A DNA stretch of 59,538 nucleotides, the filler included, from Dugesia japonica (lineage: Eukaryota), in assembly GCA_001938525.1 (NCBI GenBank). It is 5 parts of 5 records of this genome, joined end to end, with 100 filler letters (N's around TTAATTAATTAA, not from the genome) between each part and the next. Parts side by side here need not be neighbours in the genome. Positions count along the whole stretch, not along the records: positions 49,325 to 59,538 come from MQRL01614401.1; 4 more parts are not named here. One strand, written 5' to 3'. Of this stretch, positions 6,895 through 59,538 are shown piece by piece; position 1 is the first letter of the stretch; every line of letters starts with the position of its first letter. Position numbers and translations under genes: made by a program. The notes beneath the pieces are model-generated. The model had not been told where the DNA came from, did not search any database, and was given only the letters and a program-made list of their open reading frames with translations.

Positions 6895-7092
6895 TATGAG
6901 GAAATAATTATTATTTNNNNNNNNNNNNNNNNNNNNNNNNNNNNNNNNNNNNNNNNNNNNNNNNNNNNNNNNNNNNNNNNNNNNNNNNNNNNNNNNNNNN
7001 NNNNNNNNNNNNNNNNNNNNNNAAATAAAAAATGTCTAACAATATGAATTCTGATTTGCAAAATGAATTAACAATTGAAGATTTACCTAACA
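6895..7092 (+). repeat. 5' LTR
   Basis: Matches 10282-10473 on both sides of the N gap; ends CCTAACA directly before the PBS. Confidence 0.9.
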
Positions 7093-10000
7093 TGGTCGAA
7101 GCGGTAAATACAGATTCTATTACTGAGAGGTTATTACCAAAGATATTCTGCAGAGAAGATGATATTGAGAAATTTATCAAGCGTTGTGAATTGTATTTTG
7201 GTGCTAAAAACATCACTCATGTGAAACAACAGGAGAGATTAGTCTCTTGTTTGTTAGATGAAGATTTGTTGGAAGAATATGCAAAGACGTTGAAAAAAGT
7301 TGAAGGTTTTCAGGTTCGTTTACGTATGGCATTTGAGAAAAAGAAAGATGTTATCAAAGATTTCAAAATTTGATTAACTTCAGGCAAGGAAATGAAGAGA
7401 TTCAAGTTTATTTTAAAAATGTAAAAGATTTAGTAAAAAGATTATTTACAAATAAAGATTTTACTGAAGAATAGACATGTGNAACAAAGAAAGGAAAAAC
7501 AAAATATTGAATGTTGGTCATGTCATAAGATCGGTCATACTAAAGCAAGTTGAGGAAACAAAGAAAGTAGTAGAATGCTGGAGTTGTCTTAAAACAGGAC
7601 ATAAATGTTTTAGTTGTGGAAAGGTTGGCCATATAAGAAGGTTATGTCAAGAAGTTAGGTGTAAACAATGTGGTAATGATGGACATAAGGCAGAAGAGCG
7701 CTACACAAATTTTAAAATGAAAAGAACTACTGAGAAATTTATGACTGCAGAAAGTCACGAAACCGATATAATCGATGACATGCAATTGCAGATGAAGATG
7801 TCAGTACAAACGATGGATATGAGGAAGTATAAGAAAGTGTTTCCGAAAGGCAATACCCAAAAGGCAAAACTCCACCATTAGAGGAGTTGGTTGGAGCCAT
7901 CCATTGTTAAATGAAGTTAGTAATTATCCTCAAGGAGTCGAAAAGTGGGATGATATAGGAGAAATTACAGAAAAAGTATACAGGTTCTTAAAGAGGGAAA
8001 ATTTTGCAAATGATAGAAAAGTAGAATGGGTTGGAACAGTTGAAGCAGAAAAGAAAACAAATATTTCGTACTACAAATTGCAAGGCAGACCAAGTATTAC
8101 GGTATCAATTCAAGGAAAAAAAGTAGAATGTCTATTAGATACAGGGGCTGGAATTAGCGTGATGAATTTGAGTTGTTTTAATAAATTACGTGATGGAAAT
8201 TTAGAAATGAGTGATGAAAGATTGCATTGTGCAAATAACAGTGCACTTAAAATTGTTAAGAAAGTTAGAACCGGAGTGATAATTGATGAAGTTTGCAAAG
8301 AGATTACCTTCTTAGTTGTTGAAAGAGTAACACCAGATCTGATAGGAGGAATAGATATGCAGAGAAATTTTTGATACCAGCTTATGCGAAAGGTCGATAG
8401 TAAATCGGATTAAAAGGTCGAAAATTACATTTGCAATATTGAAGCAAAATTCGGAAGACAAATTAAAAAAGGAGAGCGATTGACAAGAGCTTTAAATATT
8501 ATGAAGATTAAAGAATATCAACGTTTATTGAAACAAATTGAAAGTAAAGAAGAAGCTTTTATGGCAAATAAATGGAATGTAGGACGCACACATCCGATAA
8601 GACACAAAATTATCAGAAGTAGTGAAACAATCAATGTAAAATCGTATAGAAAACCAATGAACGTAGAATCTAAAATTGAAGAAGTTATCCAAACTTTTTT
8701 CGAGAATAATATTATTTGAAAATGCAACTCTCCATGGAATACCATACTGATATGGGTTTTTGGAAAAAGAAAAAGAAAGACATAAGAATATGCTTAGATT
8801 TTAGACAATTGAATGCAGTAACAAAAAGACAAGCCTTTCCGATGCCTAATGTCGATGAAATGCTGGACAAGTTAGATGGAGCCAAATATTTCAGTTCAAT
8901 AGATTTGGGAAATGCATACTATCAAGTAGAGCTGGAAGAAGAATCTCAAGAAAAAACGGTGTTTTCAACGAAACATGTGCAATATTTTTTTAATAGAGTG
9001 CCATTTGGCATCGCAGTAGCACTATAGACATTTCAAGAGATGATGACAAAAGTGGTAGGCGGAATCAAAGGAGCCATGGTTTATCTTGATTACATACTGA
9101 TATTTACGAACAATAAAGATCAACACTATGAAGTAATTGAAAGAGTATTGATGGAAATAATGAAGGCTGGTCTAAGAATTAATCCAGAAAAGTGTCACTT
9201 TCTTCAAAGTGAAATCAATGTCAAATGTCACATGAAGATGCCAAGAAAGGGAAGATTAAAACGAGAATACTGAATATAATTGAAAAGGAAAAAGAAGATC
9301 ATTTAAATATTTCTGAGGAAACAGATTTGATCAAGAAGATGACAAATTACATGAAACAATAGAAGAAATACATAAATTATTATGTTATGCAGGAGTTGAA
9401 AATGTGTACGAATATATGAGGAAAAAATATATTGCAAAGAATTTGTGCAGCCAAATACAGAAGATATTTCGAAATTGTTAAATTTGTCAGTAGACTAAAG
9501 TAGTGACAACACCAACTAAAGAGAAGACAAAGAGTTAGAAGCTACAAATTTGTCTGAAGTGATATTCACAGATAAATGTAGGGCAATGAGGGGAAAAAGT
9601 GGACGGAAAATATACATTCTTGAAATAATCGACCAATACAGTAAATATCTGGTTCTTATACCATTGCCTAGACAAGACGAGGAAANGATACGAAAAGCTA
9701 TTTTTGAAAAGTGGATATTGAGATTTGGATGTCCAAGAGAGATAAAATTAGATTGTGGAATCCAGCGTTTGAATCCAGAGTTATGAGAGAGTTTGCACAG
9801 TAGCTAGATATTAAACTTTGCTTTTCGAGTCCCTATCATCATAATGCAAACGAAAAAATTGAGAGACAGTTCAGGACAATTTGAGATTTGATTAATGCAA
9901 CACTTCAGGAAAGAAAGTCAACAGATTGGGAAGATCTTTTACCGGAAATAGAATTTACAATGAACGCAACCAAACAGAAGACGACTGGAAAGAGCCCGGC

Positions 10001-10281
10001 TGAGATTTTATTTGGAAAGAAAATTAGCGGAGAAAAGTAGTATGAGTCAGAAGTTTCAGAAAGAGCTAAAGAAAACCCTTCAGACGTGATTACTAAAAGA
10101 GAATTCAAAGTGTGAGATATAGTACTCATCCAGATAGAAACAAAACATAAAACCCAAGACAGATTTGAAGGACCCTATCAAATAATTGAGAAAATTCATG
10201 AAAAGCGGTATGCGGTACAAGAAGAAAATGGACAGCGATTAGAAAGAGATGTGGAAAAACTTAGAAAGTTTCTTAAGGGGA
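7032..10281 (+). pseudogene. Gypsy gag-pol remnant (zinc knuckles, protease, RT, integrase; RNase H deleted)
   Basis: CFSCGKVGHIRRLC, LLDTGAGIS, RICLDFRQLN, SSIDLGNAYYQ, YLDYIL, IIDQYSKY, SPYHHNAN; many stops and frameshifts. Confidence 0.95.
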
Positions 10282-12310: not shown

Positions 12311-12432
12311 AATTCATTTAATATAAAAACTTTGATCAAAATTTTGGTTTTTTCTATTGATATCGAATTATTATCCAATATCAATTAAAAAAAAACCAAA
12401 ATTTTGATCTAAGCTTTTATATTAAATGAATT
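12311..12432. repeat. About 120-bp imperfect palindrome related to the Penelope tail
   Basis: AATTCATTTAATATAAAA...TTTTATATTAAATGAATT; arms resemble 6751-6810. Confidence 0.8.
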
Positions 12433-39859: not shown

Positions 39860-40280
39860 TCCTAATATCAGATCTTCGAGGTACACTTTAATGATAGCTT
39901 GAATTTGAACAAGAGTAATCAGAACTTCAAAAACGTTAAAGTGAGCTTTATTTAATCTTCTGGATAGCCTAAAGTTGAACTTTTACGCAAAGTTGTTTGT
40001 TTTCTATCATAGTTATTAAAATGAGACCAAACCTCAACATTATCTAGGCAAGTATATTACCAACTTTACTTCCCTTTATCAAATATTAAAATTTCGTGGC
40101 ATTTTGAAGTTTGATAAACACTCCATCTCTTGTTGTAGCTGTCACTCTACATGAATATAAAGCACACTTTCAGTATCTTGTTATTCCACGATTGGAAACA
40201 AACTTGTATCCATTAATAAAAGGTAAAACAGAGCTTTTTTTAGAGAGCAACCACTGTAATTCCGGAATAATAAAATTATA
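39860..40280 (-). mobile_element. MULE (FLYWCH-type) internally deleted remnant
   Basis: FINGYKF...RY*KCALYSCRVTATT (FLYWCH) joined to W...RTNNFA*KFN...AHFNVF. Confidence 0.7.
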
Positions 40281-40360
40281 TTTAAAAAAAGTCAATCATT
40301 TTAAGTATATAGTTAAATTAAATAAATAAAAACATAAAAAATTAATGTTATATATTCATT

Positions 40361-41014
40361 TGTTGGGGTTCCAGCTGAGAAGCGGATAGAAAAATTATGG
40401 CTGGGGGAATAGACAGCCCTCAGTGGACCCCGCGAAGTATTTAACCTAAAGTCCCTGTTTTAGGCCTTCAGTGCAGAGTCGTTGACTTCCAAAGTTTATT
40501 TGGAGTGAATACTCGTGCACCTTTAATTTGGATTCGAGAATTTCCACTCAATTCAAATTCACGGAAGCAAAGACATATGATTTACAAACATTTATTTTAC
40601 AAATACTTAATAGCTTCAAGGTCAAGCCATTGGGCTGGCTCGTCATTTAAAAAATCAAATGTGACCTCATCATTATCACTGTTCTACCTTGTCCATGTCT
40701 CCAATTGGAGACAGGAGGACAAGTCAGCAATATATTGTTTGAGAAAGTTGACTTTATTCCTTAGTTGTAGGTTTGTATGGTTCACGATTGCTAATTGTTT
40801 CTTATTTATCAATTCTAGTTTTTGAATAAGTCGATTTTTCTGAGAAAAAAGTCGCAGAAGGGACCGTTCGCACTTTTTCGAATAGTGACTCTCGATTATG
40901 AACTTCATCAATAATTTATGGCAGCGTCGTAGAGAATTGAGTAGTCTAACTCTTGGCACTAAATACGAGAATATTAACTAGGAATCGAATAAGAAATAAG
41001 TAGAATGATTTACT
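40361..41014 (+). mobile_element. Unclassified TGTTGGGG-terminated element, copy 1
   Basis: About 170-nt terminal region homologous to 56064+ and to the reverse complement ending at 53077. Confidence 0.8.
40597..40958 (-). pseudogene. ORF-A, coiled-coil/acidic accessory protein (one premature stop)
   Basis: PRVRLLNSLRRCH...KVNFLKQYIADLS...FDFLNDEPAQWLDLE; TTTAG acceptor before it, AATAAA directly after the stop. Confidence 0.75.
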
Positions 41015-41114
41015 NNNNNNNNNNNNNNNNNNNNNNNNNNNNNNNNNNNNNNNNNNNNTTAATTAATTAANNNNNNNNNNNNNNNNNNNNNNNNNNNNNN
41101 NNNNNNNNNNNNNN

Positions 41115-42527
41115 TATTGAGGTTATGTCCCCAGTCGTTAGAAGAAGAAATATTAAATCTGAACCGAAGGTTGAGCTAAAACTCCTGCTTTGCCACCTCC
41201 TAATCGTCCTGTTAAACAAGTTAAAACAACTGTTCATGAAAATCCTGCCTATTTTTCTAAGCCTATTGATGTGAAAAAGGAACCCCAGTAATATCTTGTA
41301 CCTGATTGCTTGTTTTTTGATACTATGGTTTCTGATGATGATAGTTTATTTAATAAGCCTAGTACAAAGCAAGAGTCTACTTCATTATTGAGACGTCCTG
41401 GGGATCCTGATCAGAAAATTACTCGGCGTCGAACTTAGACATAGCCTACTCGTTCGGTATCTAATCCGGTTGCATATCGTATTCAATCTATTAAACGTGC
41501 AATAAGTAAGTTAAAGACACTTGTTTTTCGGCCTATTGGTGTTAATCCTGGTGCAATTCAAAGATTATTTAAAAGATTTAGAACTGTTACTCGTCCAGGG
41601 CGTAGTCATCATGTTACAACTGGGATGGCTCAAGATCTATTTGTACAGGCTTTATTTCCAGCTGTTATATCACTGACAACCTTTCAATTAACTCCTGAAG
41701 ATGCAAAATTTTAAGAGTATGTATCTAGGGAATATGCTAAGCATGCTGAAAAGTTGGCTCCGTTTAAAAAGCAGAAACGTATATTGGAATATAGTTTAGC
41801 TCATCCAAAACGTATACCTTTATCATCCAAATTATTGCCATTGCAAACTTTAACTGTTTAATCTTTTGGTCAGTTTATTATGTACTTTAATCAGCGGTTG
41901 CGTAATTCTTAAAATGTGAATGAAATGTTACGTGTTTTGATTGCTTTATTAGAAGCAAAGAGGTAAGTTCCTTATACTGATTGGCAGGAGTTGGCTACTT
42001 GTATTAAGCAATATATAACTGATTACTTAACTGTTGATATATCGCATGATGAGCGTTTACGTGTTCAAATGGATCTAGTAATGTCTCGTCATAATATAGA
42101 ACAAGTTACTGAAGCTGTTGAATATGATGGTGAGGAACCAGCTCCTCCTCCTGCTGAGTCTCCCATATCTATAACTGCGGGTGTTGGTGGTGGTGGTGAT
42201 GAGTCACCTTCTGAAAAAATTCCGCCAGGTGTTTCAACTGACCTGCCTGTTAAAAACGAAGATAATACTCATAAATGTGACTTTTAAAAACAAAGGCTTA
42301 GTTCTATTGCTTTAAATATACTAATTAATAAAATTAAGCGTGCTCTAGATCAAACTACTTATTATCAGCCGCCGAGTATAAATTCTGAATCTCTTGTGTC
42401 GTCTAATAGTCGTACTAGACAACGTTTTACTAATAATCTAACTGAAGCTCAAACTGTTATTCAATTTATTCGTTTAAGAAGATATTTTGGTAAATGTCCG
42501 CTGTGCAATCAGCATATATTGGCATAG
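41115..42527 (+). pseudogene. Unknown ~460-codon Pro-rich protein remnant
   Basis: One long frame with about 7 scattered stops, strong NNT codon bias, ends GKCPLCNQHILA*, AATAAA downstream. Confidence 0.7.
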
Positions 42528-42790
42528 AGTTGAGTGCGCCTATCAAACAATAATAATAAAAATAATAAAAATTTATACATTTATACATAATATTCTTTAA
42601 TAATTAATTTGATTCATTTTAACAATGATGTATATATTTTGCAATTTCTTTGATAATTTCATGACAATCCAATGACTTAAATCCAAGAATCACCACTTTT
42701 TCCTTGGCAAAAACCTTGACACATAACGGTTGGCAGGAAATAATTTTGGTTCGAACCAATAATTTAATACACTGATCAATTTATAGAAAT

Positions 42791-43105
42791 TCACTCCCGT
42801 TCAAGATCACATGTTACAGCAATTGATTGAATACCATCTATTTGGATATTGACATTTTTCCAAGTGATTTGTTTATCCGTGATTGGTTTTTTGCATTCCA
42901 TGATTTGACATTTTCTCAATTCAAAAACAATTACTGAATAATCTTTCATTTTTACTACACACTGTCTGGGTATCTTACATGTATTAAATCGAAGATCTGA
43001 AAAAGAACCAATTAGATGAGCTCTGTAATTAATATTTGATAACATTGTTTGACAAATGAGCAATAACCATGGGCTTATATACTCTTTTTGTATAAACAAA
43101 TTCAT
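42791..43105 (-). CDS. Hypothetical Polinton accessory protein (probably truncated by stops)
   Basis: 104-aa ATG ORF divergent from the ATPase; no recognised motif. Confidence 0.35.
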   Translation of the reverse strand: MNLFIQKEYISPWLLLICQTMLSNINYRAHLIGSFSDLRFNTCKIPRQCVVKMKDYSVIVFELRKCQIMECKKPITDKQITWKNVNIQIDGIQSIAVTCDLERE

Positions 43106-43129
43106 TTTTATGGTTTCTGTAAAATGTAA

Positions 43130-43750
43130 TTACAAAACAACGCGGGTTTTCAAATGGTCGGTCCCAGTGGAAGCGGCAAAAAATTATTTATTTGTAAATT
43201 ACTACTAAGCAAATTGTTTCAAACAAAGTTTAAACATATTTATTGGCATCAAGGTGGTGGAGATGAAGCCGATTTGACTAATGAAGAATTTTGCAAGTTG
43301 AGAAAGATTACGATAATTAATGAATTCGATGATGAATGGTTAAAGAGATTAAATACTGGGGATGTTATTCTAATTGATGACTTCTTCCAAGAAGCAAAAA
43401 AGCAGGTTGATTTTAATAATCTCTTTACAAAAACTGTACGTCATGGTAATGTAACTGTCATCTTCATCACTCAAAGTCTTTTCCATCAAGGTGGTATGCA
43501 TCGTACACATAATTTAAATGTCCATTACTTGGTTTTATTCAAACATCCACGAGATCAAACTGTGGTTGACTATATTTCTCGTCAAGCATTTCCACAACCA
43601 AAAGGTTTTTTATCTGATGCATTTTGTAATGTTACTACAAAACCATATGGATATTTTTTTATTGATTTTACCCAACAATGTCCCGATGATGAACGAGTAA
43701 AAACCGATATATTCAATTTAGAAGTTATAGTTTACAAACCATTGGTATAA
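43130..43750 (+). CDS. FtsK/A32-like DNA packaging ATPase
   Basis: Walker A GPSGSGK, Walker B VILIDD, RHGNVTVIFITQ, KPYGYFFIDF; 5' end probably frameshifted. Confidence 0.92.
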   Translation, partial: LQNNAGFQMVGPSGSGKKLFICKLLLSKLFQTKFKHIYWHQGGGDEADLTNEEFCKLRKITIINEFDDEWLKRLNTGDVILIDDFFQEAKKQVDFNNLFTKTVRHGNVTVIFITQSLFHQGGMHRTHNLNVHYLVLFKHPRDQTVVDYISRQAFPQPKGFLSDAFCNVTTKPYGYFFIDFTQQCPDDERVKTDIFNLEVIVYKPLV

Positions 43751-43789
43751 ACAAAACTAGTACTTAATAAAGGAAACAAGATTTTGAAT

Positions 43790-44280
43790 CGATTTAAAAA
43801 AGTTTTCATCAAACAAAAGGGTGCTAGTGATGCTGGTAATTTGAGACTTTTTTCACGAAATATTACATAATTTAGGGCAATTTTAAGAGCTCCATTAGAT
43901 TCTCGATAGCAAATCTTGAAATTAATGCCGGCATTTGTCATGAATGATTTCATTAGTGTTTTGCCACAAGTTGTTTTGGGCCGAGTCAATGTAGGTCACA
44001 AAAGTGGAAAAGTTTGATTGAAAAAATATCAAGAGGCTCTTGTAGATATGGCGAAAGCAATAAATTTGGCATAAAAAAACGAATATTTGAAAGACATATT
44101 CCTATACAAAAAGAAATCAAGAAGAAGAGCAAAAAACAAGTTTATTATGGACAAAGTGGAATTGAATTTGTTTGGACTGCAATTTTACCCATTCTAGGTT
44201 TATTAGGTAAAGTGGCTGCAACCAGTGCAGTTGTGGCTGCTACAGGATATGCTACAAAGAAAACTATTGATTCTGTATAA
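43790..44280 (+). pseudogene. Cupiennin-like core/membrane-lytic protein
   Basis: NDFISVLPQVVLGRVNV, LKKYQEAL, QSG then FVWTAILPILGLLGKV; stops and frameshift. Confidence 0.7.
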
Positions 44281-44389
44281 ATAATTTAAATTCGTTTCAA
44301 TATTGCAATATAAATGGGTGTTGCACCTTGATATTATATTCCAGACATTTCACAAAATATTCTTTGTTGTATTTCGCGCGATCAAGGTG

Positions 44390-44971
44390 ATGGAACGACG
44401 ATGGTACAATCCGAAGGACCCGGTTGAATACGCTGGTATTTCAAAGCTTGCAAATGCGGCAAATGTTTCGGTAAAAGAGACGATGAAATGGTTAGGTAAT
44501 CAGTTGGCATATAGTTTGAATATAATAATGCGAAAATGGTTTCCAATCCGGAAATATATTGTTGCTGGGGTTAATAGACTATGGAAAAAGAATTTGATAG
44601 AAGTGATTCCATATACAAGCATAAATAATGAATATCGATATATTTTGACATGTGTTGATGTGTTTAGTCGATATGCACGCGCAGTTCCAGTAAACGGAAA
44701 AAATATTTTGTTGGCTTTGACGGCAAAGTTCAAAGATGTTCATCCAAAAGCTATTAAACCGATTTGGGTAAAATGTTTTACAATACTCAGGTCAATTCAT
44801 TACTGACAAAATATAGCATATTGCATTACTCAGTATTTACTCAGTACAAGGCAGCTCTAGTTGAGCAATTTAATTGAACATTACGCACACGATTAAACAT
44901 GTTATTTACGAAACAATGTAATAAAAAAGAATACATGTTTTACCAAAAATAATTTATGCATACAACAATTC
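44390..44971 (+). pseudogene. Retrovirus-like (rve) integrase of Polinton
   Basis: YNPKDPVEYAG, YILTCVDVFSRYA, TDLGKMFYN, KAALVEQFN*TL; 3' part deleted. Confidence 0.92.
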
Positions 44972-45059
44972 TGATATTTATAAAATTATTCATCAAATAT
45001 TTAAATAATTTGTTATAGATTCAAAGTTTAGACTGGTCATGTTTAAATTACTTGATAAT

Positions 45060-45446
45060 GTTTAATATGTATCATTTGATGATAATCTTTTGCTAATACT
45101 CAGTCTTTCTTCTGCAAAATTCAACAGGTCTATAGAACAAGAAAAGGGTTTGCATAAACTGCTATTACATGGTAGTATTAGACAATTATATATTTACTCA
45201 TCGATTGTCGATCCAAATTTGGTTGGTGATGTACGCGTGTCGCTTTTAATGAGTATATAGGTTGATAGTAATAAGCATTCATTTGGTGATGTTGTACATG
45301 TGAGACTTGAAAATCCAATGTACTTACCTGTATCATCATCATATATCAACAAAAATGAAGGAAACATACGTGATGATGCCAGAAGATTGATTAATTTTCC
45401 ATATGGATCAAAGACAAGTTCAACTCTACATTTTCGTCAAGTATAA
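45060..45446 (+). pseudogene. Penton / minor capsid protein C-terminal part
   Basis: LYIYSSIVDPNLVGDVRVSLL, PMYLPV, IRDD, TLHFRQV*. Confidence 0.88.
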
Positions 45447-45479
45447 ACAATTTGATTACCACGTGATTCATTATTGAAA

Positions 45480-45881
45480 ATGGTTGATCGAGCTATTATC
45501 ACAATGTATAGTCGTCCACAAATAGGTAGAGACGTGCAATATTTTATCGGTAGTCAAAAACAGCAAGGTGGTGAAAATTGACTGCATAGAATTAGACGTT
45601 TTTCAATTCCAATTTTGCAGAAATTTGGACTTCCAATTGCAAAGTCAGTGGGGCGAGCACAAATTAAAGCTCTTGATGATGTTATCAACAAGAAACAGTC
45701 ATTTAAAGAATCAATCAAAAACCAAGCAATGAATATGTTGCCGAATGTGTAGGAAAATGCATTTAATGCATTAAAGGAAGTGGTTGATGGACAGCATGGC
45801 AGTGGAACACGTAAACGGAAAAAAATAACATCGACTATAATTAAAAGACGCCGATTAGATGGAACCATCTTTGCAAAATGA
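45480..45881 (+). pseudogene. GasderminX-like basic core protein
   Basis: QQGG, RRFSIPILQK, KSVG, FKESIKNQ, QHGSG, basic tail; stop overlaps the hexon ATG (ATGA). Confidence 0.75.
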
Positions 45882-47118
45882 GCGTGTATGCCAGAAAAAC
45901 TGAATTATCGCTTTTTGGCCATAATATACCATAAATTGTTGTTGGAAACTCTACATTCTACAAACGATTCTATAACTAGGTATGCTGGACAACAAATTGA
46001 GTTCAATATTATTCGTTCAGATAATGATTACTTGAATTTGAATGATACGTTGCTTATTAATAAAATGAAGACAGTAAAGCGTGATAGAACGGGTTTTGCA
46101 TCAACTGATACTACCAACATGATTTCTTCCATCTACTTGCTTCACACTATATTCAAATAACATAATTAACACTAAATAATGTAAAGTTTGAAGATACAAA
46201 TGATACGTATATTAAAAGGCGGTAATTGAATCCGCATTGAATTCTGGATCGGATACAAAAAACACTTTTCTTGAAGCCATTAGTTATCGTAAAGAAGATG
46301 ACAAGAGAAAGAGTTGGATTAAAATGTCTACAAAGCTAAAGCTCTATCGTGCACTTAATTTGGATTTCTTTGACCAACCAAAGTATTTGTTGCAGGAAGT
46401 CAATGTGACAATCAGATTGACTAGAAATGTGGATTCGGTAATGTACAAATATACCAAGGGTACAGAAACAGTTGAGATGAATCCACAATCGTACACTATA
46501 GAAGCAAAATTGGTACTGCGACGTGCTCGTATTGATCAGTTGGTTAGGATTGAACATCGTCAAGGATTGGAACATCAAAATGCAATTTATATTTTCCAGA
46601 AAACAAAAATCGTACATTTTACAATTCTGAAAAACTCACATGGGGAATATAAAGATAATTTCTTTACCGATGAACCATTACCGAAATTTGTTTTGACTGC
46701 TTTCCAATTGGCAAAACAAGCAAGTGGTGATTACCGTTCATTTTGTTCGACATTCTCAAATTTCAGTGTAAAGTCAATATGCTTGGCGAGAAATGTTGAT
46801 TATCGAAAAAACATATACTACTACTTTGATACCCACTATACGAAGGCATATATTCAATCGATTATTCGTAATATGGGTCTGTTAAATGTTGATCTAAACA
46901 ATGGTTTTACACTGAAGGAAATTAAAGACTCGTGTACGTTTTTCACATTTGTATTGGCTTTAGACTTTGCAGTTAATCAACCGCAATTGCCAAAAACCGG
47001 AAATTTCAAGTTGGATCTGCGATTTCATAAATCCTTGACGGAATCAGTGACAATGTATGCATATGGAGTATTTGATTCGGAAATTAAAATCAACAAGAAT
47101 GGAGTAGTAGTTGTATAA
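45878..47118 (+). pseudogene. Hexon / double jelly-roll major capsid protein
   Basis: KTELSLF, IEFNI, YLNLNDT, DFFDQPKYLL..V.IRLTRN, LPKFVL, GNFKLDLRF, YGVFDSEIKI; stop and frameshift in the 5' part. Confidence 0.92.
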
Positions 47119-47187
47119 ACACTACATAAATTTATGTGTGTATTGCATAGCATGAAGTATGTATTGTTTTTATAAAGAGAATGTAAT

Positions 47188-47523
47188 AATAGTACTTTCT
47201 AGATTGAGACTATACTGAGACGCATACGATTCAAAGGATTTTATCCACTTGAATGATTACCGCACTTTTTACAAAGCGGATTCTATGTAATCAATACACA
47301 TACCTCAAATTTAGATGGTGAGTATTATATTGCAATTCATGTCAAACCAAATATTATTCGTGTATTTGATCCAATGGGCATGTTTTATCCACCATTTCTG
47401 GTAAGAACGTTTTTGCGTATGCAACAACGTGAATACAATCAAATCATGTATCAGAATTCATTGAAATTTTCCTGTGGACAATATTGTATTGAATAGCTTA
47501 AAAGCCAGTATGAACAATTTTAA
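47188..47523 (+). pseudogene. Adenain-like maturation cysteine protease
   Basis: VINTH..DGEYYIA (GEHW decayed), FDPMG, YN..YQ..SCGQYC. Confidence 0.85.
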
Positions 47524-47547
47524 TATGATTATCAATAAAATTTTAAA

Positions 47548-48002
47548 ATGTCTGTGTTTTTTATTGATTATGAAACCTTTCAGGATAATAATGCCGAAGG
47601 TTTAATTAAAAAGATATGCATAATGGATGTGAATTATATTCTTCAACCTTTTTATTTCATGTTTGCCATGGCGGAATCAATGGGCAGTTTATCAAAGTCT
47701 GCTCTCATCATCTCAGGTGGGTTGATGGAGATTTTAAATTTGATATAATTCAAATTCTCAATGACTTGCAAGCAATTTCTTATGATGCATTGTTTTATGT
47801 GAATGACCAAGTGAATGGAAAGAAAATCAATACTGTTAAAGATATTATCCCGAGGCTTCGAATTGCCAATTATAACTCAAATGAACAATTACAATTATGT
47901 ATACCAGATAATATTTCTTGTTCATATTATAATCATGGGGATTATTGTGCTTACAAAAAATGTTTAACACTTTGTATACATTATCTATCATCATGTAAAT
48001 AA
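47548..48002 (+). pseudogene. Small DEDD-like exonuclease-fold protein (frameshifted)
   Basis: FIDYETF..LIKKI, HHLRWVDGD, C-terminal CSYYNHGDYCA. Confidence 0.65.
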
Positions 48003-48037
48003 ATATTTCTTTTGCTTTTTGGCTATTATTATTAATA

Positions 48038-49224
48038 TTAGGTTGTCACATATGAAATGTCCGATTTTAGAACTCGTTTTTTAACTAATGTATTTTCATG
48101 TAATGTTTAACATTTAGAACTTATTTATATATCATTTTGAAGGTAAAATATTTGATTATCATGTTATAATATTTGTTTTAAAAATCTATATTTTAAAATT
48201 ATTTTTAGACAGCATGGAACACAAGCTAAAAAATACGGAAATGCAAACATTATTTTTTTATGAATGGAAATTAAAGCATAACCCAACAGTAGCTGCCTGA
48301 AACATTAATTTTGCATTTAAAGAGGGTTTAGCTAATGAACGAAATGTTCGGAGATGGTTCGAAAAATTTCAAAAGGGTGATTTAACCCGGGTCAATATGG
48401 AGAGTGATCGCCCCGGGATTGTCATTAGCAACGACTATGTAAAACGTGAAGTGGAACTAAACACTAGTCCATCAGTACGACAACTTAGTAAAACGTTAGA
48501 CGTTAGTCATCAAACAATTTTCGGTAATTTAAAGGCATTGGAAAGAAAAAAAAGATTGACCAATGAGTTTCTCATTTATTGAATAATTCCCAAAAATCGA
48601 AAAGATTGAAAATTTGTCAAATGCTGCTGGATCGAAATAAATCGGAATATTTTTTTAGATTGCATTGTCACTTGTGATCCAAAATTGGATATTCATCACA
48701 ATCGTAGACGTTCTGCACAATGATTAGATGCCGATCAACCTCCTTTACACTGTCTTAAACTGGATTTTCACCCGAAAAAGACAATGCTAACAGTTTGGTG
48801 ATCTATAGCTGGAGTCATACATTTTTCTTTGTTTTTAAGAAGGTCAAACTATTACCTCAGACAAATACTGTTCTGAAATTGAATTAATGCATTAAACATT
48901 ATGCATTAAACAGCCTTCATTGGTGAATAGAAAAAGAAATAATCCTCTTGCATGATAATGATTGACCACATGTGGCAAAGAAGACGTCGCAAAAGTTGAC
49001 AGACTTAAAAATTGAAACTTTACCATATCCACCATATTTGCCCGATTTATCAACGAAAGATTAACATTTTTTTAAGCATGTTGATAATTTTTTGGTTTAA
49101 AAAATCATTGCTGATCGGGAGCATGTCCAAATGGCCATATCCGAATTCATAGACTCCAGAGAAAAAAATGTTTTTGCTAATGGTATTTTGAAACTAGTTT
49201 CTAGATGGCAAAAAGGTGTAGAAT
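48038..49224 (+). mobile_element. mariner element (cecropia/Hsmar1-like), degraded
   Basis: TA followed by TTAGGTTGTCACATATG TIR; ATG at 48214; VRRWFEKF, IVTCD, HDND*PH, PPYLPDLSTKD. Confidence 0.93.
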
Positions 49225-51138
49225 NNNNNNNNNNNNNNNNNNNNNNNNNNNNNNNNNNNNNNNNNNNNTTAATTAATTAANNNNNNNNNNNNNNNNNNNN
49301 NNNNNNNNNNNNNNNNNNNNNNNNATAAAATATACTATTTCGATGAGAAGACGAACAAGTTTTATGAAGAACAAGAAGAAGATGAAACTTTGAACAAATA
49401 CAAAAATCTTCAAAGTCGTGATATTTTATGAATATCAGTTCAATGGCATTTTTGTTTCCATAAATATTTTTTTCGGTAAGATATTCATTTGAATACCGTT
49501 TAGAAGATTTAAATGTTCAACATTAATAATTTTTGATTTTTAAAATTTTCAATATCTTTTGAGTTGTTAGTTACCTTTTTATTTTTTTGTAACTTTTCAT
49601 TAACATTCATTGTATACTGTATTCGTAACTTTTTCTTTAGATTTTTCAAACTTATTGCACATTTGACAAATATTTGAAGTTTTGATCATATTTTAACTTT
49701 TTCAAAATTTNNNNNNNNNNNNNNNNNNNNNNNNNNNNNNNNNNNNNNNNNNNNNNNNNNNNNNNNNNNNNNNNNNNNNNNNNNNNNNNNNNNNNNNNNN
49801 NNNNNNNNNNNNNNNNNNNNNNNNNNNNNNNNNNNNNNNNNNNNNNNNNNNNNNNNNNNNNNNNNNNNNNNNNNNNNNNNNNNNNNNNNNNNNNNNNNNN
49901 NNNNNNNNNNNNNNNNNNNNNNNNNNNNNNNNNNNNNNNNNNNNNNNNNNNNNNNNNNNNNNNNNNNNNNNTTGAATAAATTATTGATTTTGAGAATCTT
50001 TATTTTGAAATTCTTTGTGAACAATAAAGTCTCTTGATAAAGTGGATGTTGGTGTTCTTCATTATTATTGAGAAATTTATCAAAAATTGATTATTGTAAA
50101 TTTCGGTCGAATAATAGGAATTGATTTTTTTCGTGTTGTTTTTCTTATGAGAAATAACCTTTTCTTGTGAGTTTTCGTTTGTAGAGTTAATCTTTTCGCA
50201 CAGGCCTTGAATGGCAACGTGGAGAAATTCAATTGATCGTTTTAAATTATTGTTGAAAATTTTTGGCATCTGAAACGGTCTCGCCAAAGACAACTAATAG
50301 CGTACCTATTATTTCATGACCTGATCCTGTCACCCCACAAAACCGACCTGTGGTGTTTTGAGGAACTATTTCCGCTGCAGCCTGACGTCGATCTAGATTT
50401 ATTTTATTTTTATCTTATTTTTTTAATTGTTTGCATTAATTAAATAAAAAAATTTTAAGTTATAAATAATTGATGAAATTATTATTAACAAATTATGTTT
50501 TGGTATGTATCACAGCTAATACCACTATTTATCCTTTTTAGTGAATTACCAATGGGTACGAGTTTGGGACCGCTAAATTCGGCCGGCAGTTTTCAAGCGA
50601 TACACCAACCCTTTCAATATGGACGCCGGCGTATTGTCGGATCGGTCTATTCTGCCTGCTGTAGAGGTGGTAGTTTGAAGGATACCGGATTTTTACGAAT
50701 GGCAGAATTATTATTCGTACCATTTTGTCCCATCGCAAAGTTTAGTTAGCCAGTTTTTGTTCGGGACTCCACCAGCTCTCCCTGCAATAAGGGCAGCTAT
50801 CGATAACTTATTATGGAGTGCCCGAAACCACGACAAACATAGAAAAAAACCGAAAATTTTCAAACCCAGGAGAACTGATTTTGCTCGTTGTTTTGTTTTT
50901 AATTAATTTCTACCTATGTAGTCTGATAAAGAGTCTTGTTTTTTCTGAATTAAGCGTTCTAACACCTGTCGTTCGGCAATCAGTTTTAATTAGAGATTCT
51001 ACTATCGTTTGCTACTTTTTATTTTTAAGAGAATTCTGAATGATAAAGTGCTAGGCAGTGGGTTTTCCGTAATAATTTATTAGGATTAAGCTTGATTGCA
51101 GTAATCGTAAATCCATTATTTATGATAATTTCTTTTAG

Positions 51139-51487
51139 TTCATTCTTCGCTTAATTGGTCTGTCGCTCTCACCAAAAATTTCCGCAAGGATAGTAAACAT
51201 AGAGAAATGTCATGTGACCTCTATCGTTTAAGCAAAAAAAGTAGGAGGCCCTTACCACCACCGCTAATAGTAAGGTGAAGCTGTACAATGATAAATGTCA
51301 CGCTTACAAACTTGAAGCTGAAGCTACACACGCACAACAGCGCGTGTGGAAGCAACAGTAAGAAACGTTTGCCGATGTCATCCAGCCCCTCCATGACCGA
51401 GAAAATAAACTGGTTACTTATCTGCTCAACATGCGGAGACGAATTCCTTTGTAGCTGCTGATAGTAGATAAAGCTACCCAAACCTGA
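51139..51487 (+). pseudogene. ORF-B, helical accessory protein ending DKATQT
   Basis: DLYRLSKKS...RVWKQQ*ETF..HDRENKLVTYLL..VDKATQT*; homologous to 56867-57222. Confidence 0.75.
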
Positions 51488-51598
51488 AATTGATTATTTA
51501 AATGTTTTTCTTATAAATAAATCTTTCTGTATCATCCGCCTTAACATTTTTTGATTATTTAGTCTTATCTTGTTGTTTTTAATTTTATTCTCTTTTAG

Positions 51599-52832
51599 TA
51601 CCTCGAATACGATTATTAAATAGTCGAGTTGTCACTGACTGATTCACAAGCTGCTTCTAGAACGTCCTTACGCTAAACCGAATGAGCTCACCCTGCTACG
51701 CCACCTGGCCCAACGTAACTGGCTCATTAAAAAGCTAGATATAATGGTAAAAAATGACGATTTGGCTCACAGTGTAGGGTATTTAACTCAACAAAAGTTT
51801 ATGGTTCGTATAGTATAGTTATAAATAAGATAACTGTAAGATTGTGTGTGATTTATCTTTTGAAATATTGTTGTTATTCAATGTATGTAGCTACAAANNN
51901 NNNNNNNNNNNNNNNNNNNNNNNNNNNNNNNNNNNNNNNNNNNNNNNAATGTATGTAGCTACAAATACTATATAGACGATATTTTATCAAAATATAAATA
52001 TGGTTATATCTTGTATACTTCTTGATATAAATGAATAAGCAATCACCTTTTCAAAATATTTATTTTGGATATATATATGCTTAACCTTATAGGTAATAAT
52101 TTATTTAATGAAGGAAAACCACTTAAAGAAAGAGGTTTCCTTAATTAAAAATTTTCTTCAAAACTAAACTGACATACGTCAGTATTTATAGTAAAATTTA
52201 CACTAGGCATCATGCAATGACTTAGTGATTATCATTCCAAAATTCAAAAATTTTTTACTTACATAATAAAATTCCATTAAATCAATTCATAAATAATAGA
52301 ATTTTCCATAAAATTTTCAGACAAAATATATCAATCAACAATTCCGATTAAACTTCAAATTAATTTACAAATAATAATAAACATTAATAAAATTTTCAGG
52401 TTTAGATAATGTTTATACAATAAAGCCGAAATAATTAAACAAAACCGAAATTAATTTACAATGTCTAAAATCATAATAATAAAATGTAATGTCAGCATAT
52501 TTGAGTTGGATTGATTGATCTTGATTTGAGGACNNNNNNNNNNNNNNNNNNNNNNNNNNNNNNNNNNNNNNNNNNNNNNNNNNTTTTGAGTTATATTACT
52601 CTGCTTGTTTATTGTGTGTTGTGTGTATTGCATGCTTGTATATTCAAACCTCAACAACAGGACTAAACAAATGCTGGTCAACAAAAAAGATTTTTTAAAC
52701 CAATATATCGCTGACCTATCCACCTGGCTGGAATTAGAAAGCTCGACAAGGTGGAATAGTGACGATGATTTGGTCGAATTTGATTTTACAAATGACCAGT
52801 GGCTTGAATCTGAGGCGCTAAGTTTTATGTGA
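51599..52832 (+). pseudogene. ORF-A, split by a ~0.9-kb insertion (51753-52640)
   Basis: PRIRLLNS..LLRHLAQRNWLIKKLDIMVK // SNLNNRTKQMLVNKKDFLNQYIADLS..FDFTNDQWLESE. Confidence 0.75.
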
Positions 52833-53155
52833 ACAATTATTTGTGTAAATAAAATTTTTTATTAAGTAATTGTTAACTTTGCTCTTGATTACCAGATTAG
52901 TATAGTGGAGAAATATTGAAGTTGTGCGAGTGTGTACTTCAATTAAGCGTTGAAAGTCAACCGCTCTATACCGAAACACTAAAAAGGGACTTTAGATAAA
53001 TTCTTGAAAGGGTTCCCTAAAGGCTTTCGTTTCCCCAGACATATTTTTCTACACCAAACTCAGGTGGAACCCCAACATTATTATCAATACTTTTCTCTGA
53101 ATGCTTAATCGTGCAACTACATTTTCAGCAGTCAGCTGCATAGCTAAGATGTTGC

Positions 53156-56063
53156 ATGATTTCAGTTTATGTCAAGCGATGCAAAGTGTATTTTGAAAGT
53201 AAAAACATCACTCAGATGAAACAACAGGAGAAATTAGTCTCTTGTTTGCTAGATAAAGACTTGTCTGAAGAATATGCAAAAACGTTGAAAAAGGTTGAAT
53301 GTTTTCAGGCTCTTTTACCTATGGCATTTGATAAAGAGAAAAAGTTTATAAAAGATTTTCAAAATTTGATTAACTACATGCGTGAAAATAAAGAGATTTA
53401 AGTTTATTTTAAAAATGTAAAAGATTTAGTGGAAAGGTTATTTACAAATAAAGATTTTACAAAGGAAAAAATGGTAGCAAAGATACTAGTTTTTGGTTCA
53501 GATAGCAAAAAAGTTGAAGAACAAGTTACTTGGTGGAAACGACAGAATGTAGAATAAATTGAAGAAACAATGACGTTAGTAGATCAAGTAGGGAAAAAAA
53601 GAGATCGAGTTGATGCAATTAGAAGTTACGTGAGAGTTACAAATCAAAATTATCAGAAACCGTTAAATCATACAGTGAACAGACATGTGGAGCAAAGAAA
53701 TGAAAAACAAAATATCGAATGTTTATTATTATTAAGATCGATCATACTAAAGAAAATTGTCCAACAAAAAAAATGGTAGAGTGCTGGAGTTGCAATAAAA
53801 CAGGACATATAAGTCGAGACTGTCCAAACAAAAACCAACAAAAGGTTTTGATTGTGGAAAAGATGGCCATTTAAGAAGGTTATGTCAAGAAGTGAGGTGT
53901 AAACGATGTGGTAATGGTAGACATAGAGCAGAAAAGTGCTACACAAATTTGAAAATGAAAAGAACCAATAAGAAATTTATGACTGCAGAAAGATCAAGAA
54001 ACCCATATAATCGAGTACAAGCGAATGAAGATGAAGATGTCAGTACAAACGATTGATATGAAGAAGTATATGAAAGCGATTCCGAAAGGCAGGGCTCCAC
54101 CAGTAAAGGAGTTGATTGGACCCATCCATTTTAAATGAAGTTAGTAATTATGCTCAAGGGGTCAAAAAGTGGGATGATTTCAGAAAAGTTACGAAAAAGT
54201 ATACAGGTTCTTAAAGAGGGAAAATCTTTCAAATGAGAGAAAAGTTGAAAGCAGAAAACAGTTTAAGCAAAACAGAAAACAAATATTTCGTACCATAAAT
54301 TGAAAAGCAGACCAAGTGTTACGGTATCAATTCAAAGAAATAAAGTCGAATGTCTATTAGATACAGGGGCTCAAATTAACGTGTTGAGTTTGAGTTGCTT
54401 TAATAAATAACGAGAACTAAATTTAGAAATGAGTGAGGAAAAATTGCGTTGTGCAAATAATAGTACACTTGAAATTGTTGGGGCAGTTAGAACCAGAGTG
54501 ATAATTGATGAAGATTGCAAAGAGATTACTTTCTTAGTTGCTGAAAGAGTGGCACCAGATCTGATAGGAGGAATAGATATGCAGAAGATTTTTGGATATC
54601 AGCTTATGCGAAAGGTTGAAAGCAAAGCGTTTGAAAAAGTTGAAAATTATATTTGTATTATTGAAGCAAAATTTGGGAGACAAATTAAAAAAGTAGAGCG
54701 ATTGACAAGAGCCTAAAATATTTTGAAGATTAAGACGGATCAACGGTTTTTGAAAATAATTAAAAGTAAAGAAGTTGCTTTTATGGCAGATAAATGAGAT
54801 GTAGGACGCACACATCTGACAAAACACAAAATAATCACAAGTGGTGAACCAATCGATGTAAATAGTATAGACAACCAATGAACTCTTCTTGGAATACCCC
54901 ACTGATCTGTGTTTGGAAAAATTTAAAAAAAGACATAAGAATATGTTTGGATTTCAGAAAATTGAATGCCTAATGTCGAAATGCTGGACAAGTTTGATGG
55001 AGCCAAATATTTCTGTTCAATAGATTTTGGAAATGCATACTATCAGGTAGACCTCGAAAAGAAAAACAGCGTTTTCAACGAAACACGGGCAATATTGTTT
55101 TAATAGAATGCTATTTTGCATTGCAGCATCACCAGGGACATTTCAAGAGATGATGACAAAAGTGGTGGGCGGAATCAATGGAGCCATGGTTTGTCTTAAT
55201 GACATTCTGATATTTACTAACAATAAAGATCAACAATATTAAGTCATTGAAAAGTATTGATAGAAATAATGAAGGCCGGTCTAAGAAATAAATCAGAAAA
55301 GTGTCAGTTTCTTCAAAGCGAAATCAAATTTCTTGTACACATAATTAGCAGGGATGGTGTTAGAACTGATCCGTCTAAAATAGAAGCAATAAGATTACTT
55401 GGAAAACCTAACTGTGTGAAGAAGTTACGAATTTTCTCGAGAATTTGTAATTTTTACATGAAGTTTATAGAAAAATACTTAAGAAATTCAAAGATATTAG
55501 AGCAGTTGCGTAGCGGATCAAGCAACAAGAAATTAGAATGGACAGATAAAATAAACGATACTTTGGAGGGTCTAAAAATATATCTAATGACTGCACCAAT
55601 ATTTTGTTTTCCGGACATAAACAAAGGATTAATATTAGATACAGATGCCAGTTTTGATACAATTGGAGCAGTATTGTTACAGAATGAAGGAAGAGAAAAA
55701 GTTGTTGCCTATGGATCACACTCAATGACAAGTCATGAAAAAGGATACTGCATTACACGAAAAGAGTTATTGGCATTTTATTATTTCTGTATGCATTTCA
55801 AGCATTACTTGTACGGTAGAAGATTTATTCTTAGAACAGATCACAAAGCTCTAACTTTCATGATGACAACAAACAAACCAATTACGCCGCAATTTCAAAC
55901 ATGGATTAATTATCCGAGCAGTTTAGATATGGTTTTGGAATATAGAAAAAGAATTCAAAATGCAGATATGTTATCTAGACCAAGATGTGAGGGATGTGTA
56001 CAATGTCAAATGTCACATGAAGAAGCTAAGAAAGGGAAGATTAAAACGAGAATACTGAACATA
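53156..56063 (+). mobile_element. Ty3/Gypsy gag-PR-RT-RNase H remnant, same family as 6895-10473
   Basis: High similarity to 7178-9270; RNase H motifs ILDTDASFDTIGAVL, ITRKELLA, RTDHKAL, NADMLSR. Confidence 0.95.
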
Positions 56064-56312
56064 TGTTGGGGTTCCATCTGAGTTGATGATGGAGAGAATA
56101 AACTGGCCGGGGAAAAACGATCCTCAAGTGTAACCCGTCAAGAATTTAAATCTAATGTCCCTAAATTAGATATTCAGTGTAGAACGGTTGGCCTTCAACT
56201 TCATGTGAGGTTCACACTCCTACACTTTTGGTTCGGGTACGTGATTATTTCCCTATTATTTTAAAGTATCAAAAAGTAAACAACAGATTACTCAAATTAT
56301 ATTGTTTCTAAA

Positions 56313-56690
56313 CTACATTCCATCTAGATCCTCCGGGTCTAACCACTGGGCAGGCTCTTCGGGTATGAAATCGAATACTAAATGGTCATCCTGATCGTCC
56401 CAGTTGAGACACGTTTCATTGCCTAACTGGCGGGATAGGTCGGCAATATACAGTTTCAAGAATTCGACCTTGTGCTGCAGGACTTGTTTTGCCTACTCGG
56501 CTAGGTTATTCTGCTTTTTTACTATTTTGTCTTATTTCTTAATCAGCATATTCCTTTGAGCCAAGTCTTTTAAAAGAGCCCTCTCGGTTTGACGTTTGAA
56601 ATGCGATATATCCATCAGTACTGGCTCGGACCAACCATCAATTTCGTCGATCCGCCTGCATTACCAACTCCATCGTTCACGGAGGATTAC
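56313..56690 (-). pseudogene. ORF-A homolog
   Basis: SHFKRQTERALLKDLAQRNMLIKK*..KVEFLKLYIADLS..FDFIPEEPAQWLDPE. Confidence 0.75.
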
Positions 56691-56866
56691 GAGAATCATT
56701 TTTTGAGCGAGTGATTCAGCAATTATAAGACCTCCAATTATTCATTTTAAAGCTGTAATACTAAAGGTGTCACGGATTTTTCTGAGCTTTTTTTTTAATC
56801 TTTTTATTATAAATAATGTTCAGAGTTGTACTAATAAAGAATTTATATCTAAATCTTTCATTTAAG

Positions 56867-57222
56867 TTAATCAATTATGAGCGAAATCCACTGTGTTTAC
56901 TAGTAAACCGCTTCATGACGACAGTGATTACCAAGAAATTACTTGGGAGCTGTACCGGTTAGCAAAACGCAGCTGAGAAGCACAGGATTCAACAAAGAAG
57001 TCAAAAAACAAAGTATACAAGAAACGTCGCGAATTCAGGGAGAAAGCCGCCCTTTCTTATGATAAAGAGCGCCTCTGGAAGGCCGAACTTGAAACTTTCT
57101 CTGAACTTTTACACCAGTCGCATGACCGGGAGAACCGGATAGTGGGATATGTACTGAAATTAAAATTTCAAGTACCAATAAATCCATTAATGATAAATAA
57201 AGCTACACAAGCTAAATTCTGA
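56867..57222 (+). pseudogene. ORF-B homolog
   Basis: ELYRLAKRS*..RLWKAELETF..HDRENRIVGYVL..INKATQAKF*. Confidence 0.75.
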
Positions 57223-57389
57223 TGACTTTTTGTAATTAAATAAATTCTATGTAGAACATTTTTGAATTTGCTATATTTTATTTTAAACCTCTAATTTACT
57301 CTATTAATTTAGTGCCAATGCGTACTCAGCAAATTCGGTACGCATGTGTCACTATTGGATTAGTTATTTGAGCAGTTTAGATATAAATA

Positions 57390-58255
57390 TTTTATATAGA
57401 AAGGATCGTTTCATACAAATGCGGATATGTTGTCAATGAGTAAATGCGATACATGTGCACGACGTCTAATGTCCCATGAAGTTCCCAAAAGTATAAAATT
57501 AAAAATAAGGATGTTAAATACAGTAGATATCCAATAGAAGCAAGACAATTTTGAAGAAAATGATGAAGTAACAAGGATACAAGGATACTCCATCTATTAT
57601 GTCATGCTGGAGCAGAAAAGTAGCAAAGTATATGAAGCATAAATACAACTCGAAACATTTGAGGAACAAAGTACAAGAGATTGTCCGAAGCTGTATAACA
57701 TACCAGAAAGCTAAAGTGTTGTCAACAAAAAAGAAGGAACAAACGAAAATGACACAGCTAGTTAAAATGTTTGATTTGTTATTTATATATGTGTGTGGAG
57801 ACAAAATATATAGGAGACAAAAAAGATGTTTTCGGTATAATATATCAATGCATTAAGTATGTAGTTTTGATAGCAATGGCAAGACAAGACGAAGATACCA
57901 TACGGAAGGCAAAGTTCGGGTGTCCGAGAGAAATTAAAGTTGATTGTGGAAGAGCATTTGAGTCTAAATCATTAAAAGATGTTGCAGCTGAACATAGATA
58001 TACTCTCAGGATTTTAAGTCTATATCATCATAACACAAATGGACAAATCAAGAGACAGTTTAGAACTGTGAGATATGATAAATGCGACGCTTAAAGAAAT
58101 GAATTCCTCAGATTGAGCTGATGTATTGTCGGAGATAGAATTTACCTTGAAGACTACAAAACAAAAGATCACTGGAAAAGATCTACTGAAATCATATTTT
58201 GAAAGAGAATAAGCAGAGAAAAATGGTATGAAACAGATTCTCAAAGAGAGCAATT
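57390..58255 (+). mobile_element. Gypsy integrase remnant (another subfamily)
   Basis: NADMLS, HLLLCHAG, SCITYQKAK, FGCPREIKVDCGRAFES, YHHNTNGQIKRQFRT. Confidence 0.88.
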
Positions 58256-59538
58256 TTCGATTTTTTTATGTCATTTCACCGTCGTTAACACTGGTTCCAT
58301 ATAAATTTATCTTATCATAGCTTATGAATTTCCCTTACATCACATCGCTCGTTTCTTTTATGCATTTCTACTCCGTAAGTCTCATCACTTATTTACCCTT
58401 CTTTCTTTTACTACACAATTCGAATTTTGCAACCCATCTTGCTTATTTAATAGACCACATACTTGCTATAATTATTTCTCGACCAAAACCTCTTTCACCC
58501 AACCTAATTAACAGCACTCTTTCGTGCTGCTAGCTAAGAATGAATAGACAATCTCGTCGTTCATTAATAAATTATCACATAACAAACAATTAATAAATTT
58601 TACTTTCTTTTGATACGTCTGTCCGATTGTTAGCAATATTACCACTCAGTATTTTTAACAATAAATTACTGAGAGTTTCATAAATGAAATTTTTAAGAAA
58701 TTGATTTTCTGAAAAATGCTTTTTTTTTATACTCCACTGTTTCGTCAAATTTTGACTAATACAGTTGGTGCCAACTTTAGATTTATGTTAATGCAAGAAT
58801 TGTACGGTTCTCACCCGTAAATTCTACAAAGATGCCCAAATATGGTCATGATTATTTTTATTTTTTGTTAATTCTGTTACGGATTAGGTGCTCACAGATG
58901 TTCTATGTTTTTCCTCACGTGATCGGCTTATAAAAATAATAATTTTCTGAAACTTTTAAGAGTTTTAAAAATAAAGATAACTACACAATCACATGCAAAA
59001 ATGAACATATCTATCCCGAATTCTTACATAAAATCATCTTCTACATATAACATTCCTGTTATAATTTCTTCTTGTTCATTATAAATAATAATATTTATTG
59101 AATAATAAGTATTTTAATTATATTTATCGATAATAATAATAATTTCATATTTAATTATAATAATAATACAATTCTTCTACTTAAATCTGACGAATAATAC
59201 AATATTTTATTATTTATAATGATGATGATGATGATGATGATTCATTTCGCTTTGCTTTTCCTATCATTTCACTTTAAAATATCAAAATATTTTAATTTAC
59301 AGTTATTTGTAGTTATTTGTTTTAATCTTTCCTTTTATCTCATCAATATAATTTTTTTTAATATATAAATACTTTTAACACATTTATATAAATTATAAAT
59401 AATGATTTATATTTCTTGTTTTATTTACATTCTCCTTTTCGATCACTAAAACAATTTGATTTATTTACTGAGTACTATTTTATCTTATTAACTTCGGAGC
59501 CATATAATTATTAATTATCTTCAATTACTATATCTTTT

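Follow-up and report, generated by a model that had tools for sequence, protein, structure and literature searches.

The window analysed here is a 59,538-nucleotide stretch of the Dugesia japonica assembly GCA_001938525.1, filler between its five parts included, and is AT-rich eukaryotic scaffold sequence interrupted by many gaps. It contains four decayed fragments of Gypsy gag-pol (7032-10065, 37683-39990, 53159-56063 and 57356-58250). Their family reaches extreme abundance in the DNA runs and has transcripts in both RNA runs; the third of the fragments, on the plus strand, lies between two of the element termini described below. A decayed Polinton/Maverick-like core occupies positions 41115..48006 (plus strand), and a decayed mariner-type transposase (48150-49224, plus strand; HTH_48 E 6e-10, Transposase_1 E 4e-10) separates it from an array of short coding blocks that includes ORF-B, the subject of this work. 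A search of Rfam with positions 40000-59538 gave no match.

The genes of the Polinton-like core all lie on one strand and include an A32-like ATPase, an rve-like integrase, a capsid-like gene and a large proline-rich ORF; the putative link between this core and the exon array is broken by scaffold gaps. The Pfam matches to Pox_A32 (E 3e-4) and rve (E 0.058) are both under the cut-off, and no polymerase was seen within the core. The capsid-like gene has 34 unnamed homologues in public assemblies, at 40-75% identity; a DJR was found in 1 of 28. A capsid relative has an Atlas likeness of 0.98 to eukaryotic clusters, one of which has a double-jelly-roll domain in 15% of its members. Pfam gave no match for the protease and penton candidates of the core, and we take both labels to be resemblances. 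Presumably also a resemblance is that of 18380-18715 (plus strand) and its neighbours to a protein-primed family B polymerase; this fragment, 22 kb from the core, has no Pfam match either.

ORF-B is present as two homologous, broken copies

ORF-B was found on the plus strand as copy 1 (51139..51487) and copy 2 (56867..57222), the only two that a profile search of the whole window returned. The first-pass annotation had described them as diverged copies that share the blocks LYRL.K+S, R.WK...ETF and HDREN++V.Y+L and end in the tails DKATQT* (51467-51487) and NKATQAKF* (57196-57222). Blocks and tails are present as claimed, and the homology is firm: the copies are 36.7% identical over 79 aa and 39% over 28 aa (tblastn, joint E 9e-15), and their alignment scores 145 against a shuffle maximum of 48.

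The description of ORF-B as an open reading frame did not survive. The reading frame from 51139 does not yield the ORF-B protein: the N-terminal and C-terminal blocks of copy 1 are in different frames, broken near 51245 by a frameshift, and the copy carries two stops in frame, at 51359-51361 and, four codons upstream of DKATQT as counted from D, at 51452-51454. In copy 2 the frame is interrupted by stops at 56878-56880 and 56974-56976. ORF-B is a pseudogene in both cases, and neither copy is readable through to the motif-bearing tail. The end of copy 1 is uncertain, with a further stop two codons on, at the position where copy 2 stops. The copies have no common start codon; both start right after a pyrimidine-rich AG, an acceptor-like site, in the manner of 3' coding exons. 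In the region of copy 2, DNA contigs match 56815-57201 with 0 differing letters and 57043-57384 with 1.

ORF-B belongs to a multi-copy repeat and was under selection

Between copy 1 and copy 2, pS was 0.79 (41/52) and pN 0.39 (67/173) in the C-terminal part of ORF-B, and 0.81 and 0.39, respectively, in the N-terminal part. In a Gypsy pair of the same window, used as a control, pS and pN were equal (0.12/0.12). Since pS of ORF-B is about twice pN, with the control equal, we conclude that ORF-B was real coding sequence and that its copies diverged under purifying selection.

Two DNA runs, from two studies, and two RNA runs were aligned to 49972-57450 at 80% likeness, giving tables that are mostly Gypsy; of the letter table, 40 rows are listed and 1279 lie beyond these. 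In the two DNA runs, 102 and 99 contigs cover position 51386 in the core of ORF-B, and the summed depth of the three bins immediately upstream of this core is about 30-40 times lower. At the last internal stop of copy 1, all covering contigs (11/11 and 9/9 in the two DNA runs) have a different letter, indicating that this stop is private to that copy. RNA was seen over 51386 in one of the two RNA runs, as 26 reads with about 16 starts, all of which differ from the window there and so derive from related copies. The second RNA run had no depth over ORF-B, and for 56064-57350 no run is listed in the RNA data. The ORF-B segment is part of a multi-copy repeat, and the repeat is likely mobile. The earlier suggestion that ORF-B is a mobile-element accessory protein fits, in that the segment is multi-copy, was under purifying selection and is tied through ORF-A to a TGT-ended terminus, one example of which interrupts a Gypsy pol gene.

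ORF-B is likely a spliced last exon within an array of similar blocks

ORF-B copy 1 is preceded on the plus strand by two blocks. Block C (50542..50906; about 120 codons, 43% GC) follows an AG acceptor-like site and contains two internal stops; its probable coding status is judged from a single copy. Block D (50170..50430), a candidate coding block of 37% GC, is the weakest member of the array. We note that 10 residues of block D (50280-50310) resemble the RENKLVTYLL block in ORF-B (uncorrected shuffle p 0.03). After ORF-B copy 1, an ORF-A exon starts at an acceptor-like site (51599..51812, plus strand), coding from the acceptor on and broken, and an ORF-A C-terminal part at 52641..52832 (plus strand) overlaps it in homologous positions and is probably from a different copy. 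The ORF-A pieces at 51645-51800 and 52647-52829, on either side of gaps, overlap by about 15 homologous codons and are for this reason different copies or a mis-join. ORF-B copy 2 is likewise followed by a short exon start at an acceptor-like site (57313..57355, plus strand), which is truncated by Gypsy sequence. Two ORF-A copies are on the minus strand: the best preserved one (40597..40958), with one internal stop, heads towards the terminus at 40361, and one with a different N-terminal part (56313..56699) stands head to head with ORF-B copy 2. ORF-A and ORF-B have no detectable relation to each other.

The pyrimidine-rich AG sites number six: those of both ORF-B copies, of block C (50542), of ORF-A (51599, and 40958 on the minus strand) and of the piece at 57313. 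At both ORF-B starts and both ORF-A starts, the frame that is conserved is in phase 1. PRxRLLNS is retained at each ORF-A start, beginning at the acceptor, and most of the changes are synonymous. A frame conserved from the acceptor in phase 1 suggests that the start codon would be found in an exon further upstream. The phase of block C and of the exon that follows copy 2 is assigned by analogy; in each of these two, the first 35 codons are more open in another phase. A same-phase chance of 0.004 was set aside because the frame is independently fixed in only four of the six sites, which form two homologous pairs. AATAAA occurs at 50443, 51516, 52848, 57239 and 40596, that is, after block D, both ORF-B copies and two ORF-A copies, and the GC content is 37-43% in the blocks and 18-31% in the spacers. 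The order is ORF-B, then ORF-A, then the terminus. We read ORF-B as a likely spliced last exon and the blocks as an array of alternative last exons that would comprise C, B, A and perhaps D.

No splice joint for the array is among the 15 of 959 joints listed in the Gypsy-dominated table, and no leader exon was found. Two further arrangements were rejected. An internal splice donor that would make the tail non-terminal was set aside because no shared GT site was seen in the two ORF-B tails. A start AUG from a flatworm-type spliced leader would, given the ending of such leaders, need phase 0, in conflict with the phase 1 of the conserved frame.

The proteins of the array are without database relatives. 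The homologue search with ORF-B gave two candidates, of which none passed, and its single match among 1.84 billion sequences, a TPR-repeat protein, was rejected as a helical-repeat artefact. Against PDB the best E was 0.12, Pfam gave two weak matches under the cut-off, and neither PHROGs nor the viral contigs gave any. For ORF-A, 359 candidates were obtained and none passed; its best Atlas likeness (0.90, to short coiled-coil clusters) came with low recognition and was not taken as evidence. For block C no homologue was found. We regard the array as no less interesting than the motif discussed next: it offers several proteins of about 120 residues that lack database relatives, at the end of an element to which about 100 contigs are related.

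The tail of copy 1 resembles known LC8 ligands

The sequence (K/R)xTQT is the canonical ligand of the dynein light chain DYNLL1/LC8, and rabies P is a viral LC8-binding protein. The tail of copy 1 reads VDKATQT (positions -5 to +1 of such a motif; 51464..51484, plus strand), and that of copy 2 carries the variant INKATQAK (57193..57216, plus strand), with Ala at +1 and Lys at +2. According to the sections of PMC6607443 on LC8 ligands, these bind as an eight-residue strand anchored by TQT; the anchor is intolerant of deviation, and the favoured flanks are polar at -4, large or basic at -3 and non-aromatic at -2 (section 9). Of the motifs predicted with a matrix in the study reported there, 7/19 bound. 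The phage-display part of PMC3078936 gives a twentyfold higher LC8 affinity with Val at -5, and its text also states that dimerisation domains often flank LC8 motifs.

We compared both tails with the 62 measured LC8 binders of PMC12057147 (supplement 1, the complete list). Over -4 to +1, the DKATQT of copy 1 is that of Bmf (EDKATQTL, 0.7 uM), with the same residue at 6/8 positions of the Bmf peptide, and over -3 to +1 its KATQT is that of Swallow (SAKATQTD, 1 uM). Copy 1 also has Val at -5, so that -5, -4 and -3 are all favourable by the published preferences. The flanks of both copies (-4 Asp or Asn, -3 Lys, -2 Ala) fit the rules of PMC6607443, section 9. The preference for Pro, Asp or Glu at +2, which is not a requirement, is not seen in either copy, with a stop there in copy 1 and Lys in copy 2. 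A complete TQT-type anchor (Thr, Val or Ile at -1 and +1, Gln at 0) is present in copy 1; copy 2 has Ala at +1, a residue found there in 0/62 of the listed binders. The claim that ORF-B ends in an LC8-type motif thus stands for copy 1, whose tail reads as an excellent match, and only imperfectly for copy 2. Likewise, of the TQ anchor proposed to be kept across copies, K-A-T-Q is present in both and the +1 Thr of TQT in one only. Two copies would not tell decay (the Ala of copy 2) from accident (the Thr of copy 1).

These results leave considerable room for another interpretation, which we rate as a serious one though below even: ORF-B was a real accessory protein whose tail formed an ordinary structural strand, with KATQ kept either because folding requires it or by chance, and with the TQT of copy 1 a coincidence of the kind met when many frames and motifs are considered. 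The anchor is broken in copy 2, and at about 37% identity the KATQ run is within chance, since a run of at least four identities among 105 aligned codons (39 identical) has P=0.75 anywhere and P=0.08 in the last 10 columns. The motif, C-terminal as it is, is preceded by a hydrophobic stretch (mean hydropathy about +1.0), unlike the disordered context typical of LC8 sites, and this segment has a beta-type periodicity, with a moment at 170 degrees of 1.1-1.5. In the six frames of the window, [KR]xTQT was observed 2 times against 0.9 expected (at least 2 in 11/40 simulations), the other match being KATQTQ, antisense to Gypsy at 54401; [DS][KR]xTQT was observed once against 0.125 expected, a count reached in 5/40 simulations. 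Within the protein itself coincidence is harder to invoke: among residue shuffles of copy 1, 0.7% contained [KR]xTQT and 0.17% the six-position motif, the residues at -5, -4 and -3 are all of the favourable kind, and conservation extends to the very end of the protein. Taking both sides together, we predict from the motif that LC8 binding by the intact ORF-B protein has about an even chance, a judgement that combines a prior near 0.5% for a small element protein with a likelihood ratio of a few hundred.

TGT-ended termini and the carrier element

Three element termini were recognised, at 40361..40379 (plus strand), at 53059..53077 (inverted, minus strand) and at 56064..56082 (plus strand), and all three begin with TGTTG. 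Read on the plus strand, the terminus at 53059-53077 resembles the 3' end of tRNA-Gln, which may be a primer-binding-site relic or chance. The terminus at 56064 splits a Gypsy pol gene: Gypsy reads run on elsewhere at 56063, and the Gypsy copy at 9278 provides the empty site. ORF-A runs towards the TGTTG terminus. No second end was found for the insertion at 56064, nor was a second end, a target duplication or an own integrase found tied to the array unit; among the terminus flanks the best agreement is 4/5 bases, with none over 6. The terminus pattern had one viral-contig match.

The arms adjoining the three termini are 61-66% identical in all pairings (65.5% between those at 40361 and 53077, 61-62% between each of these and the third) and differ mostly at synonymous sites (pS 0.59-0.95, pN 0.26-0.37), indicating that they are separate diverged copies. 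This synonymous bias rules out that the termini at 40361 and 53077 are one neutrally decayed repeat pair.

As for the carrier, TGTTG fits the TGTNR 5' pattern that PMC2836005 gives, in its account of element ends, for Gypsy LTRs and Ginger, and the same account describes introns in Ginger genes. Giant planarian Burro elements have long LTRs and accessory ORFs, as outlined in PMC6431247. Unlike the array, none of these elements is described with a set of short last exons in the parts of PMC2836005 and PMC6431247 that deal with them. The accessory regions of Polintons/Mavericks are similar to the array in holding small unrelated ORFs beside an ATPase/integrase/capsid core near inverted termini. 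Unlike them, the array has TGT ends rather than AG-type ones, acceptor-like sites and selection-diverged arms, and in the core no polymerase is seen; the near-identical terminal inverted repeats of Polintons are replaced here by arms of 65.5% identity with synonymous bias, and the AG-type ends with 6-bp target duplications that the vertebrate section of PMC8097293 reports are absent from the array. In our judgement the carrier is possibly, though short of probably, a long Gypsy-type LTR, and an arm of this Polinton-like element or a Ginger-like or other inverted-repeat element are each, taken alone, somewhat unlikely.

The position of the array, between the capsid/ATPase/integrase core and an inverted terminus, with the termini at 40361 and 53077 enclosing the core, brings up a second alternative, in which ORF-B is a gene of the neighbouring Polinton-like virus and its tail links a particle or ribonucleoprotein of the element to dynein, through LC8, for transport to the nucleus. 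Viral proteins (VP35, VP4, E4) are indeed among the LC8 binders listed in supplement 1 of PMC12057147. We find this improbable: the two enclosing arms are about as distant from each other as from the third, with the synonymous bias noted above, and do not make one decayed pair; four scaffold gaps lie between the left end of the core and ORF-B or the left terminus; vertebrate Mavericks, in the section of PMC8097293 on them, have no introns besides their different ends; and LC8 is now generally viewed as a dimerisation hub and not as a cargo adaptor (PMC6607443, introduction). Least tenable is the idea that ORF-B was non-coding and that its likeness is repeat DNA translated after the fact, which the stops, the frameshift and the want of a start codon or a database homologue would suit and which appears largely refuted already by the inter-copy differences at codon positions 1/2/3 (0.45/0.30/0.71), by pS at twice pN and by related copies without the last internal stop.

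Discussion

We propose that ORF-B is a coding segment, once under selection and now broken, of a likely mobile repeat and likely a spliced last exon, and that its intact product would be clamped by LC8 through the KATQ(T) tail; as a whole we give this proposal slightly less than even weight. Blocks C, B and A would be alternative last exons joined to one leader exon. The intact ORF-B product is predicted to be a small helical protein, the helical hydrophobic moment upstream of the tail being 1.2-1.6 in both copies, and its C-terminal tail may dock into both grooves of the host LC8 dimer in the form of a beta strand, as Bmf and Swallow do. The LC8 dimer would thereby pair two ORF-B chains via their amphipathic helices, the usual role of LC8. 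If LC8 is bound at all, dimerisation is by analogy likelier than microtubule transport, which the first-pass annotation had offered as the other purpose and which is the weaker option because the introduction of PMC6607443 describes LC8 as a hub.

The comparison with known ligands works in both directions. With Bmf and Swallow, as listed, copy 1 shares the residues over -4 to +1 and over -3 to +1, respectively, and ORF-B has a helical segment upstream of the motif. Unlike in Bmf and Swallow, the motif of ORF-B is at the extreme C-terminus, without a +2 residue in copy 1, in a hydrophobic context and encoded by a repeat, with Ala at +1 in copy 2. The viral binders VP35, VP4 and E4 offer the parallel of a parasite-encoded protein with a motif for a host hub, ORF-B binding being a prediction; unlike them, ORF-B is carried by a genomic repeat, and no sequence relationship to them was found. 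In literature searches on polintons and the dynein light chain, and on LC8 and transposons, we found no element-encoded LC8 ligand; to judge from their listings, the papers that turned up for LC8 and transposons deal with piRNA silencing in the host or with epigenetics.

LC8 mimicry is well known in viruses, and the present evidence for it here consists of two dead copies and one perfect motif. A broader model, which we consider unlikely, would have the abundant TGT-ended element carry a cassette of small proteins, unrelated to one another and each expressed from its own alternative last exon behind a common leader, much like an adenovirus early unit, with ORF-B capturing host LC8 through its Bmf-like tail and possibly titrating or hijacking a host complex that depends on LC8, for instance one of piRNA silencing. 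The piRNA silencing complexes of Drosophila reportedly need LC8 for dimerisation, and the thought that ORF-B acts as a decoy for silencing complexes that depend on LC8 is speculative. Should intact copies have kept TQT, and should they bind, this would be a genomic parasite using the very hub that Drosophila piRNA silencing is said to need, which gives the idea of counter-silencing its interest.

Other features of the window

Outside the array, the window contains an intact 212-aa ORF on the minus strand (3366-4004) that has no Pfam match, a single hydrophobic segment and, in the tail, two NIYEI tyrosine motifs, and, convergent with it, a 368-aa acidic low-complexity ORF on the plus strand (2210-3316). 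Self-BLAST also revealed a diverged tandem repeat of about 200-320 bases at 16994-17605 and palindromic or inverted-repeat stretches at 12311-12432, 31714-31942 and 59076-59222.
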